A stretch of DNA of 64,000 nt from Eledone cirrhosa (Eukaryota): NCBI GenBank assembly GCA_964016885.1, contig OZ024750.1, positions 46,562,001 to 46,626,000 on the forward strand, written 5' to 3'. Shown here one piece after another: positions 24,914 to 52,975 of the stretch. The notes under the pieces were generated by a model, which searched no databases, was not told the origin of the DNA, and worked only from the letters and a program-made list of their open reading frames with translations. Each line of letters starts with the position of its first letter. Within the stretch, counting starts at the first letter, position 1. A program made the translations under genes and the position numbers.

Positions 24914-24956
24914 ACGGTGCTGACGATAGCTAACAAGCTTGAAACTAGTACATCGT
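24914..24956 (+). ncRNA. Minimal type I hammerhead ribozyme (family R)
   Basis: ACGGUG CUGACGA u AGCU aaca AGCU u GAAA CUAG UA CAUCGU. Confidence 0.85.
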
Positions 24957-25460
24957 TCCTGTGTCAGTGTTGAACAAAAGGGTGACGTGGCTGCCTTAAC
25001 ACCGTACGGCATAAATTCAGGCTGTTCAGTTTGTTTACAAACGAACAAAGCGGGCGTTATAATAAGCGTCCGCTAAACTGATACGTACATATATGTATGT
25101 GTACCTGTATGTATATGTGTATGTGTATATGTATATATATATATATATATATATATATATATATATATATATATATATATATATATATATATGTGTGTGT
25201 ATATATATATATATATATATGTGCATGCTACTGTACGTCTGCATGCATATATGTATGTACGTATACATACATACTTACATTTAAGTAAGTGCCGTACTAA
25301 GAGTGAGAAATGAAATTTCGTTTTCATTTTATTACAATTATCGTTTTCGGTACGCCTGACCCATTTAACTCAATCGATATGCAAATTAGGCTGCTCAGCC
25401 GTTAATTTTCATAAGGAAAGTATATACTTTCGAACGTTCAACCATCTGGCAGAAGGGTAT

Positions 25461-25503
25461 ACGGTGCTGACGATAGCTAACAAGCTTGAAACTAGTACAT
25501 CGT
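25461..25503 (+). ncRNA. Minimal type I hammerhead ribozyme (family R)
   Basis: Identical to 24914-24956. Confidence 0.85.
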
Positions 25504-26385
25504 TCCTGTGTCAGTGTTGAACAAAAGGGTGACGTGGTTGCCTTAACACCGCACGGCATAAATTCAGGGTGTTCAGTTTGTTTACAAACGAACAAAGCGG
25601 GCGTTATAATAAGCGTCCGCTAAACTGATACGTACATATATCTATGTGTACCTGTATGTATATGTGTATGTGTATATGTATATATATATATATATATATA
25701 TATATATATATATATATATATATATATATATATATATATATATATATATATATATATATATATATGTATATGTATATGTGTGTGTATATATATATATATG
25801 TGCATGCTACTGTACGTCTGTATGCATATATGTATGTACGTATACATACATACTTACATTTAAGTAAGTGCCGTACTAAGAGTGAGAAACGAAATTTCGT
25901 TTTCATTTTATTACAACTTATATATATATATATATATATATATATATATATATATATATATATATATATATATATATATATATATATATATATATATGTA
26001 TATATATATATATATATATATATATATATATATATATATATCTGAGACTTGTCTCCTTCTTCCTCACTTTCTGTTGCTTCACCATTTTGTTTGTTTACCC
26101 TCGTGTCCCCTTTATTTACTTGTCCCAACGACATTTTTTAGCCGTTGCTCGCACCAACCGGAGGTATATGGTCTTTAAAGCGATGAAATGCCTATGATAG
26201 TTGGAAGATCACTGATGAAGGACCAACTTTTTCATATGTAACTCATTTGCAACTCCGCAGCGCCCTTATTATCATATATATATATATATATATATATATA
26301 TATATATATATATATATATATATATATATATATATATATATATATATATATATATATATATTATATATATATATATATATATATA

Positions 26386-49460: not shown

Positions 49461-51868
49461 TACGATATTAAATAAATGGAAACTATATTTATAAAACCAT
49501 ATTTATTTCATTATATATATTTCAGGGATATCATATTAACAATATGTTATGCCTTCTTCAGACAAAATACAATATAGACAGTTTTATAGATAAATAGATT
49601 TGACATACCGTTCAACATCGACTTGTATTTGAAAAAGTTGATTTGGCAGTGAAAAATTGTAAACAGAAAGAAAGAAAGAACACATAGGTATCACTCAATT
49701 TTCAATAGACATACTATAAAATTAACCTACTCATCCACCAAAAATTTAGCACAAAATATTAATAGAATAAATAATAGGAACTTAAAACCTAGCGATAATA
49801 GCATAAATAATATACAATTTAACAAATGTAACTGTAGAGATAGATCTAAATGTCCGTTAAATAACAACTGCTTAGTTAAAAATATAATATACAACTGTAA
49901 TGTTAAAACGGACTCTAATTCTTTTAACTACGTCGGTTCCACATCGACGGAATTTAAACTTCGCTATAATAACCACAAGAATTCTTTCACAGATCCAAGC
50001 AAAAAATCTTCAACAGCACTATCAGGCGTACTCTGGCAACTTAGGCAAGATAACGTTAGATATTCGACGGCTTGGAATATAGTCTCAAGAGGTATTCCTT
50101 TTAATTCATCCTCTGAGACATGTGACCTCTGCGCGGAGGAGATATTCTTTATACTAAAATCTAAAAATTCCCTTAATCTACGGACAAATTTATTCAGTTG
50201 CTGCAAACATAGATTGAACTCAACTTTTAAATATAAATTTAAATTTAAAATGTAGTATATTTAGTTTGATTTGTAATTATTTGGGAAACTAGCCGATAAA
50301 TCTTTCGATTTCTTCTTTTTATTCTTCTTTTTATTTTTATTTTTATTTTAAACATTCTTCATGAAAAATTAAACTACCCTAAAAGTTGATGCTCCAAAAT
50401 ATATCGAATAAACGTTACACTAGATAAACTTCTATATTAAATATAAGAACATATGTAGACCAAATGGGCATCCTAAACTTTTGAAATGATTTCTGCTAGA
50501 CGCGATTTGGTAAATAATTTTTAGCTTTATCTCTTTTCGACTCTGATGCTTATAATGAACTTGGCAATATATTGTCAATTAATTTTGAAGGGTTGATCTT
50601 TGTGGTCGATTTGCGTGGCATATTATGTTTTTATTTTTATTATTTTAATAATTTTAATATTTTTAAATATTTTTTAATATTTTTTAATATTTTTAATATT
50701 TTCATTTTTAATATGTAATATTTTTTAGTTTTCTATTTTATTTATTTGTTTATTATTATTATTATTATTATTATTATTATTATTATTATTATTATTATTA
50801 TTATTATTATTATTATTTTTTGTTTTTGTTTCTGATATTTTTATTAATATATTGAAATCTGTTCTCTATTTCTGCTTGATAGATAATCATGTAGAGTAAA
50901 GACAAGAATAATATTGTTAAAATTAATATAGACTCTATATATATGTGTATATATACACATATATGTATACTTAAATTTTTATAGCACATTGAGAATGTTC
51001 TCCGTGTGAAATAGGGGTTTGCAGAGTTGATCACGTAAATTTACATCGTTGTTTGTAGTTATCATATAAACATATGAATTTTTAAAACTAGACATAAGAT
51101 CATTACTTTTCACACATTATAGATACGTGTCTCATTCAGGAATATTGATATTTACATTATAGTGCCTGGTTTTTATACGAACTAATATTTCTACATTAAA
51201 ACATAGGGTTTTTAAATTCTGCCTCGCCTATGTCTGGCTACTTTTCATTTTTCTCTCTATATAACGGCTGGTTTATTTCCTAACCACATATATCTCCCTT
51301 ACATTAATACTACAGCTAAATAAATAAATAAATAAATAAATGTATCATTGATACGTCGTTCAACTACCTACTTTTCTCTCTATATATCTATCTCTATCTA
51401 TTTCCTCTCTCTATATATCTCTCTCTGTTTCTTTACATGAAGTTCTTCTCTTTATCTATCTTTCCATCTCTCTATTTTGTTGCATGCATTTCTTCTTTTT
51501 CTTCTTTTTCTTCGTTTTCTTTCTTTCTTTCCTTCGTTTTCTTTCTTTCTTTCCTTCTTTCTTTCTTTCTTTCTTTCTGTTTACAATTTTTCACTGCCAA
51601 ATCAACTTTTTCAAATACAAGTCGATGTTGAACGGTATGTCAAATCTATTTATCTATAAAATTGTCTATATTGTATTTTGTCTGAAGAAGGCATAACATA
51701 TTGTTAATATGATATCCCTGAAATATATATAATGAAATAAATATGGTTTTATAAATATAGTTTCCATTTATTTAATATCGTAAATATACTCCAAATACTT
51801 GTTGAGTGCTTTTATATCAGTTATAAATATTTACTAGTTGTAACCCAACAATTTAAATATAACTTTCC
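49461..51868 (+). mobile_element. Penelope-like element B, 5'-truncated with an inverted pLTR at the 5' end
   Basis: 49461-49680 is the reverse complement of about 51563-51782; GIY-YIG ORF; about 1.5-kb AT-rich 3' region; HHR at 51676-51737 with mirror at 49506-49567; 85-nt tail then (TA)n. Confidence 0.9.
49683..50255 (+). pseudogene. PLE linker plus GIY-YIG endonuclease, 190 codons without a start codon (absent from the ORF track)
   Basis: Hand translation: HRYHSIFNRHTIKLTYSST..NKCNCRDRSKCPLNNNCLVKNIIYNC..NYVGSTSTEFKLRYNNHKNSF..STALSGVLWQL..CDLCAEE..CCKHR; collinear with the 15075 ORF. Confidence 0.9.
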
Positions 51869-51952
51869 ATATATATATATATATATATATATATATATAT
51901 ATATATATATATATATATATATATATATATATATATATATATATATATATAT

Positions 51953-52975
51953 TTCATTTCTCACTCTTAGTACGGCTGTTACTTAAATATAAGTATGTAT
52001 ACGTACATACATACATGTATACAGACGTACAGTAGTATGTATATATATATATACATACATGCACACATATATATATATGTACGTATGGATTCACCGAACA
52101 TTTATTATAATGCTCGGTGGGTTTGTAAACAAACATCCCGAATTAAGCCGTACAGTGTTTAGCAACCATCGTTGCTCTTTTGTTCAACACTGACAAAGGA
52201 ACGATGTACTAGTTTCAAGTTTATTAGCTATCGTCAGCACCGTATACCTTCCTGCCAGATGATTGAACGTCTGAAAATATATACTTTCCTTATGCATATT
52301 ACCGGCTGAGCAGCCTAATTTGCATATTGAGTGAGTTAATCGGCCGGGCGCACTGAAAACGATAAACGGAAAAAATGAAACGAAATTTCATTTCTCACTC
52401 TTAGTACGGCTGTTATTAAATATAAGTATGTATACGTACATACATACATGTATACAGACGTACAGTAGTATGTATATACATATACATACATGCACACATA
52501 TATATATGTACGTATGGATTCACCGTACATTTATTATAATGCTCGGTGTGTTTGTAAACAAACACCACGAATTAAACCGTACAGTGTTTTCATTTTTTCC
52601 GTTTATCGTTTTCGGTGCGCCCGGCCGATTAACTCACTCGATATGCAAATTAGGCTGCTCAGCCGTTAATATACATGAGGAAAGTATATACTTTCAGACG
52701 TTCAATCATCTGGCAGGAAGGTATACGGTGTTGGCGATAGCTAATAAGCTTGTAACAAGTACATCGTTCCTTTGTCAGTGTTCAACAGAAGATCTACGAT
52801 GGTTGCTAAACACTGTACGGCTAAATTCGGGATGTTTGTTTACAAACACACCGAGCATTATAATAAATGTTCGGTGAATCCATACGTACATATATATATG
52901 TGTGCATGAATGTATGTATATATACATACTACTGTACGTCTGTATATATGTATATATGTACGTATACATACTAAT
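51953..52975. mobile_element. Family R: 1.5 units on minus plus an inverted unit on plus; intact HHR at 52201-52243 (minus), decayed HHR at 52725-52767 (plus)
   Basis: Homology to the 424-bp unit; inversion near 52588. Confidence 0.85.

Follow-up and report, generated by a model that had tools for sequence, protein, structure and literature searches.

Whether a tandem repeat carrying a hammerhead ribozyme motif is a plain satellite or a replicating lineage whose RNA fold is under selection is the question raised by a 64,000-nucleotide (nt) stretch of the genome of the octopus Eledone cirrhosa (assembly GCA_964016885.1, contig OZ024750.1, positions 46,562,001 to 46,626,000). This stretch is hereafter the window, and all features are given in its own positions. 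A preliminary description had argued that the repeat, called family R, is under selection as RNA and is not just a satellite, on the ground that one pair in stem I of the ribozyme changes on both sides between dispersed copies. The conclusion stands, by way of tests on lineage differences, compensation, variants in a sequencing run and insertion geometry; the stem I change proved insufficient for it. Judged from sequence and folding models, family R is, with a probability of about 85%, a non-autonomous retrozyme without long terminal repeats (non-LTR) that carries a canonical type I hammerhead, is likely active as a dimer and is likely mobilised by a Penelope-like element.

The family R unit is non-coding and measures 424 nt, or 547 nt at locus 1, where it has been lengthened by TA. 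Four loci hold ten copies of the hammerhead motif (Table 1), and a profile search of the 64-kb window revealed no ribozyme-bearing copies besides these ten; the preliminary description had counted nine and had missed the one at 39072-39114 (+). The lineage of locus 1 is the most divergent, with about 81% identity to the other lineages. No protein-like frame was found in the units among the open reading frames (ORFs) of the window. The unit is rich in palindromes, and the DNA of the window is AT-rich and dense in microsatellites. The GC content is 24-37% in 2-kb windows across the four loci, below the 45-50% that bounds non-LTR retrozymes. Retrozymes also have at least two consecutive complete motifs, of which locus 1 contains two and the array at locus 3 contains two runs of two intact ones. 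They are dispersed and of high copy number as well; family R occupies four loci in 64 kb, and 9,345 contigs of one public sequencing run (X1) match a 356-nt stretch of it.

The motif consists of a helix I of 6 base pairs (bp), CUGACGA, a U·U apposition, a helix II of 4 bp with a 4-nt loop, GAAA, and a palindromic ACUAGU helix III, with GUA as the cut triplet. The full core (CUGANGA, GAAA and UH, with helix I left open) is present in 8 of the 10 copies, and 97.6% of the 84 stem cells are paired. The U·U at 10.1-11.1, at the base of helix II where a G-C pair is usual, occurs in all ten. A conserved UAU/U internal loop follows helix I, which in the predicted fold runs on past it as a long interrupted rod; loop II ends in A, and a contact between the loops is not demonstrable by folding. 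The available text of PMC4209133 describes canonical metazoan type I motifs as having a helix I of 6 bp, a helix II of 4 bp and a helix III of 1-2 bp with a palindromic loop, and by its sequence the family R motif appears to fit this form. The axolotl motif HHR_Amex2 has a U·U at the base of helix II, yet it is described as cleaving (PMC7229834). An unrelated type I hammerhead motif with a palindromic AUGCAU helix III lies at 53133 (-), some 100 bases beyond the right end of locus 4, in a short inverted repeat at about 53045-53200. Three further small repeat families have the word CUGANGA in a conserved context (14159, 20895, 49561 and 51682; 14580, 16750 and 26689; 18735, 21326 and 26212) and fail the hammerhead filter. 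Relaxed Rfam matches obtained in 39000-40300 were rejected, being TA-hairpin matches to microRNA models only, far under the cut-offs of those models.

The preliminary description gave stem I as ACGGUG/CAUCGU at 24914, 25461 and 52201 and as ACGUUG/CAGCGU in the array. These letters are right; the first form is also found at 52725-52767 (+), and the second is found in all five array ribozymes (39590-41328, -). The variation reported for loop II was confirmed as well, with AACA in 7 of the 10 copies and AAUA in 3. Two other statements had to be corrected, since the core, described as fixed, is intact in eight copies only (the array unit at 40438-40480 has G8 to U), and a C·A mismatch interrupts stem II of the 52201 copy, which had been taken as intact. 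The change from G-U to U-G lies at the fourth pair (2.3/1.3), and pairing is kept. Because the array units are 99.2-100% identical, this flip counts as one event; it is not significant alone, and a single flip cannot carry the conclusion that the fold is selected. The probability that two random stem changes strike partners and keep the pair is 0.023, which is suggestive of selection and not proof of it. In 500 shuffles of six rows, made with no correction for relatedness, 297 reach the observed both-side count and 26 the covariation score. From the sequences, the G-U, A-U and U-G states at this pair would mark subfamilies, all of which keep helix I.

Stronger evidence comes from the distribution of changes along the unit. 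If selection acts only on source RNAs that complete the cycle of replication, changes that define lineages should keep the fold and inserted copies should decay. Three lineages were compared (the locus 1 pair, the array and the locus 4 pair) over 292 ungapped columns, with the partial copy at 39072 left out. Lineage differences occupy 3 of the 43 ribozyme columns and 55 of the 249 columns outside (one-sided p=0.013), and none of the 25 columns of core, palindrome, helix II and U·U (p=0.003 against the same 55 of 249). Private changes, found in 6 of the 43 ribozyme columns and 18 of the 249 outside, are not depleted. This combination, as far as the sequences allow it to be read, is what selection on source RNAs, combined with decay of inserted copies, would be expected to give.

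Compensation was scored over the whole unit with a reference structure folded from one array unit alone, on which the 55 differences to locus 1 were placed. Five double changes between the array and locus 1 keep a pair, against 1.0 expected (P=0.002), and eight pairs are broken, against 17.6 expected (P=0.0004). The opposite strand gives four double changes (P=0.016) and 14 broken pairs, against 18.1 expected (P=0.10). Comparison of the array with the 39072 copy gives P=0.31 for double changes and P=0.036 for broken pairs. Three of the five double changes lie in a 9-bp hairpin outside the ribozyme, and the folding z-scores are -6.5 for the ribozyme strand and -4.1 for the opposite strand. A result of 0 of 500 on selected helices was not used as proof, as the helices had been picked after the alignment was viewed and the rows share ancestry. 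It appears that the fold of the unit as a whole, beyond the ribozyme, is under selection.

These data also bear on the view that family R is satellite DNA in which the ribozyme survives only as a dead relic, and whose compensation arose from repair of near-palindromic DNA together with subfamily descent. A satellite is suggested by the palindromes of the unit, the 99% homogeneity of the array, the single event behind the stem I flip, and the damage seen in three of the ten copies, outside the array, and in one array unit. Watson-Crick double changes score on both strands, so that palindrome repair at the DNA level is possible for them. Such a satellite is nevertheless very unlikely, since the copies are dispersed, with inverted arms and fresh junctions to TA repeats, the core is conserved from one lineage to the next although it is unpaired and lacks a palindromic partner, and the depletion of broken pairs is found mainly on the ribozyme strand. 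In addition, G-U wobbles are both kept and gained, which DNA copy-back would not be expected to produce.

Variants among other copies were obtained by comparing four public sequencing runs with 39880-40235. Run X1 is perhaps the source of the window itself and is thus a view of other copies, with no independent support. At least 32 variant rows reach 2% in X1 among the 39 rows listed, and six of them fall in the ribozyme. The listed ribozyme rows are C to U at N7 (16%), C to U in loop II (66%), A to U at the cut site (5%), a change of U at the 5' partner of the stem I pair to either G (19%) or A (20%), and G to U (52%) at its 3' partner, these percentages being depths, which are not copy frequencies and carry no linkage between rows. 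The hammerhead consensus tolerates all six changes, those at N7 and at position 17 included, and the chance that every listed ribozyme row is of a tolerated kind is 0.002-0.014. As the listed rows show G, A and U on the 5' side and U and G on the 3' side, the G-U, A-U and U-G forms all appear to be common in X1. Predicted pairs are disrupted by seven of the 32 listed rows on the ribozyme strand, where 12.3 would be expected (P=0.02), and by ten on the opposite strand, where 13.9 would be (P=0.09). Both stem I partners occur on one contig in the U-G form in X4 (0 differences over 320 nt) and in the G-U form in X6. The contigs of family R in X4, X5 and X6 (5, 17 and 1, respectively) are at trace level only and were rejected as evidence for other host species; the ends of one X4 contig seem to resemble restriction-ligation junctions. 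Scans with the motif pattern gave 0 matches in metagenome contigs and 0 in prokaryote genomes, and four viral-contig matches to a looser pattern were dropped as they were without matching flanks of helices I and III.

Several results weigh against the retrozyme reading, among them the lack of linkage in the X1 depths. Only one of 14 ribozyme pairs changes on both sides over six distinct rows. The depletion of lineage differences holds for the 25 columns of core, palindrome, helix II and U·U together, and for the core alone (0 of 11) it is not significant (p=0.07). Of the 58 variable columns 42 are specific to locus 1, so the lineage test leans on one deep split in an alignment with indels. The array compared with locus 4 gives no significant compensation (P=0.11 and 0.23). 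Among the X1 rows listed, variable positions are as dense in the ribozyme (5 of 43) as in the rest (25 of 301; p=0.56), and none of the 25 constrained ribozyme columns being variable is not significant (p=0.13). At face value the 5' U (about 61%) exceeds the 3' G (about 48%) by about 13 points, which would mean some copies with an unpaired U·U. Rfam hammerhead families have no match at gathering score in the window, and none of 101 matches at E up to 10 in 39000-40300 belongs to a hammerhead family. Likeness in sequence between family R and the Penelope-like fragments of the window was searched for and not found. Finally, eight of nine predicted dimers of frog retrozymes are described in a 2026 preprint as giving no cleavage in vitro (10.64898/2026.07.22.740005); with cleavage in only one of the nine, a good motif is no guarantee of activity.

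Insertion geometry is informative on how family R moves. Each of the seven outer ends passes into a TA repeat, the unit position, counted from the cut site, being 221 in three cases, 277 in two, and 256 and 267 in one each. None of the seven lies at the cut site, which every motif copy spans, and 39 X1 contigs exit the unit into (TA)n at 40167. A second arm in opposite orientation is found at 3 of the 4 loci. In loci 2 and 4 one arm has its inner end no more than 5 nt away from the other arm's outer end on the unit (positions 217/221 and 259/256); the array does not fit this rule. The matched arm ends of these two loci look like the outcome of twin priming, a mechanism that produces inverted arms, on a single RNA. 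For Penelope-like elements, incomplete tandems, arms that are both inverted and truncated, and insertion into microsatellites have been described (10.1101/2021.04.23.441226). As side observations, locus 2 and the array meet one (TA)n run from opposite sides (39333-39377), each breaking off at unit position 221, and together they make a local palindrome. A second repeat (24494-24722; also at 22501-22725 and 18036-18147) lies directly against locus 1 on its 5' side, with a (TA)n end that points away from that locus, and locus 1 may be a two-part insertion from two different RNAs.

The geometry is shared with the Penelope-like fragments of the window, where the right end of the inverted pair at 14417-16913 also enters (TA)n. 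This raises the alternative that the units belong to an autonomous Penelope-like element, as its tandem pseudo-LTRs (pLTRs) or its 3' ends, with the ORF-bearing copies situated elsewhere in the genome. Xenopus retrozymes are said to resemble pLTRs in the available text of 10.64898/2026.07.22.740005, and the search for an attached ORF covered the window. That search found no reverse transcriptase or GIY-YIG ORF adjoining any of the four loci. The family R motif is moreover canonical and not of the minimal form carried by the Penelope-like fragments (PMC4209133), as many as 5.5 whole units are joined in head-to-tail order, and the ends are spread over four unit positions, all of which makes an autonomous parent highly improbable. 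The element could also be a retrozyme moved by a long interspersed nuclear element (LINE), for example of the RTE type or of the microsatellite-targeting R4/Dong type, in place of a Penelope-like element. LINEs are given as an alternative mobiliser in PMC7229834 and are described as abundant and recently active in Octopus vulgaris (PMC13282606), and a LINE-like reverse transcriptase tail is present at 60673-61272. Against this extremely improbable option, family R has no fixed 3' end or tail for a LINE to recognise, and partial tandems, an inverted truncated arm and (TA)n targets are the features described for Penelope-like elements (10.1101/2021.04.23.441226).

Folding suggests how a Penelope-mobilised retrozyme of this kind could work. 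The lone motif is predicted to pair CUG of the core with UAG of the palindrome in an inactive fold, for which the inactive pairing of the core with the cut-site region in viroid hammerheads is a precedent (PMC1636495). The hammerhead fold lies above the best fold by 1.4 kcal/mol for the array, 2.1 for locus 1 and 3.5-4.6 for the three damaged dispersed copies. A double hammerhead of two neighbouring units is predicted at -180.1 kcal/mol, about 12 better than two single hammerheads (-167.7) and within 2-3 kcal/mol of the free minimum. Transcription, cleavage, circularisation and the Penelope partner are taken from the retrozyme model (PMC7229834; 10.64898/2026.07.22.740005). Under that model, tandem copies of family R would be transcribed, the dimer RNA would cleave itself as a double hammerhead, and the monomers would be circularised or kept as multimers. 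A GIY-YIG endonuclease would nick (TA)n, and a reverse transcriptase would prime at internal AU-rich sites and pass through the cut site, giving tandem units, often with an inverted arm. Only source RNAs that go through the whole cycle would be exposed to selection.

An extension of this scheme, with which the folding models are compatible and which is very unlikely, treats the stem I pair as a lineage lock: a flipped wobble would restrict cleavage to partners of the same subfamily and shut out the majority type already resident, and the junctions would record reverse transcription primed twice on a circular template. In the double hammerhead each helix I joins two neighbouring units, so that a G-U unit beside a U-G unit would give G·G and U·U. 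On the array background the stem I pair costs 1.4 kcal/mol for U-G and A-U, 2.2 for G-U, 3.4 for U·U and 4.4 for G·G; G·G and U·U are thus predicted to be 2-3 kcal/mol costlier than U-G, and the difference between G-U and U-G lies within model error. If the lock were real, the G-U, A-U and U-G subfamilies would be ribozyme lineages separated by self-recognition, and the flipped wobble would also weaken the mis-registered helix that locks the monomer. The ends that never lie at the cut site and the arms that abut in 2 of the 3 inverted loci would then be a record of twin priming on a circle.

The preliminary description regarded the 52725 copy as an old insertion that had lost its core through decay. 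The loss of the core is correct (C3, A6 and A13 are changed), and ordinary decay is only partly right, as the damage is concentrated in the core. The 52201 and 52725 copies are the two arms of one inverted locus and have 5 and 11 private changes, respectively. Four of the 11 changes of 52725 fall in the 15 core and palindrome columns of the 292, with helices I and II intact; this concentration has a post hoc P=0.002, and P=0.07 over all 43 ribozyme columns. The changes give a more stable alternative fold (-16.5 kcal/mol, z=-2.0). Uniform neutral decay is doubtful as an account of the damage, and plain decay is possible.

Family R is likely a small parasitic retroelement of a type recorded in many animals, and selection of this pattern on a hammerhead has been published as well. 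Cervera and de la Pena (2020; PMC7229834) have described metazoan non-LTR retrozymes which, like family R, consist of tandem non-coding units with one type I hammerhead each, have low GC and are highly self-paired. They co-occur with Penelope-like elements, and family R lies near fragments of such elements in the window. Mussel retrozymes are given there as 350-390 nt, compared with 424-547 nt and a TA-rich hairpin in family R. Most animal retrozyme circles are predicted there to have a free ribozyme, whereas the family R monomer is predicted to hold its core in an inactive helix. Axolotl motifs of the newt satellite 2 type in the same paper share its weak features, HHR_Amex1 having a one-pair helix III under a palindromic tetraloop and HHR_Amex2 a U·U at the base of helix II, and for both dimers are expected to be needed. 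Unlike them, family R joins both features in one motif and has GUA as its cut triplet. Martinsen et al. (2010; PMC2837043) have reported the pDo500 satellite of Dolichopoda cave crickets, in which, as in family R, the ribozyme is more conserved than the rest of the repeat, with a nearly invariant core and compensatory changes in stems I and II. That study covered 198 sequences from 12 species, against ten copies, four lineages and the variant table of one run for family R, and in contrast to its account family R shows compensation outside the ribozyme too. Compensatory changes in hammerheads have been noted as common (PMC4209133). Family R differs from the hammerheads of Penelope-like elements and their pLTRs, as presented in the available texts (PMC4209133; Craig et al., 10.1101/2021.04.23.441226; Li et al., 10.64898/2026.07.22.740005), in that it has no ORF and a canonical, not a minimal, motif.

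In the giant squid, 235 Rfam hammerhead loci have been reported (PMC6962438). Cephalopods are not mentioned in the available main text of PMC7229834, and ribozyme, retrozyme and hammerhead are absent from that of the 2026 repeat annotation of Octopus vulgaris (PMC13282606). No description of family R was found in the literature on hammerheads or retrozymes in octopus or cephalopods, where supplements of papers could list it. What is new here is a very abundant, probable retrozyme family in an octopus genome, and such elements may be filed as satellite, short interspersed nuclear element (SINE) or unknown repeat. The predicted monomer lock, released in dimers, would offer a handle on what keeps a circle from cutting itself, and the TA junctions at internal sites, together with the inverted arms, a handle on the insertion enzyme and its template.

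Table 1. Family R loci, their ribozymes and hairpins, and neighbouring elements in the window.
Feature	Position	Strand	Remarks
Penelope-like 3' fragments with GIY-YIG frame, inverted pair	14417-15580 and 15750-16913		99% identical
GIY-YIG-like frame	19290-20423	-	Hammerhead-like motif at 19536 (-); end in (TA)n
Penelope-like 3' fragment with GIY-YIG frame	21475..22349	+	Candidate partner type; carries a type I hammerhead motif (22143) and has (TA)n at its end
Locus 1, about 2.2 tandem units	24722..25920	+	547-nt period; 3' end into (TA)n
Predicted long interrupted extension of helix I	24889..24975	+	From folding; ribozyme at rod tip
Locus 1, hammerhead 1	24914..24956	+	G-U at 2.3/1.3; loop AACA; predicted cut after GUA at 24950
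9-bp hairpin, locus 1 form	25050..25073	+	Three double compensatory changes and one pair-keeping single change against other lineages; G-U wobble kept
Locus 1, hammerhead 2	25461..25503	+	Identical to hammerhead 1
Locus 2, short inverted arm	38984..39047	-	Unit positions 217-277; outer end in short TA run
Locus 2, main arm	39048..39332	+	Unit positions 364 via cut site to 221; 3' end in (TA)n
Locus 2, hammerhead	39072..39114	+	2.3/1.3 occupied by A-U, adjacent pair by a G·A mismatch; loop AAUA; no core change
Locus 3, array of 5.5 units of 424 nt	39375..41699	-	99% identical; 3' end in (TA)n
Array hammerheads	39590-39632, 40014-40056, 40438-40480, 40862-40904, 41286-41328	-	U-G at 2.3/1.3; G8 to U in 40438-40480
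9-bp hairpin, array form	39909..39932	-	Both variants listed in run X1 keep pairing on ribozyme strand
Locus 3, inverted arm	41695..41890	+	100% identical to array; outer end in (TA)n
GIY-YIG-like frame	49653-50255	+	
Locus 4, left arm, about 1.5 units	51949..52587	-	3' end in (TA)n
Locus 4, left-arm hammerhead	52201..52243	-	G-U; loop AAUA; C·A mismatch in helix II
Locus 4, right arm	52588..52980	+	Inverted partner of left arm; outer end in short TA run
Locus 4, right-arm hammerhead	52725..52767	+	Stems intact; core changed at C3, A6 and A13; one palindrome change
Frame resembling C-terminal end of LINE reverse transcriptase	60673-61272		No Pfam hit

Two of the five GIY-YIG frames in the window reach the Pfam cut-off. 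The frame at 60673-61272 bears a likeness to RTE elements. A run of N marks an assembly gap at about 63190-63390. The only longer relative of a window protein (1 match among 342 candidates) is an Octopus vulgaris protein with 54% identity, which has a weak reverse transcriptase match under the Pfam cut-off.

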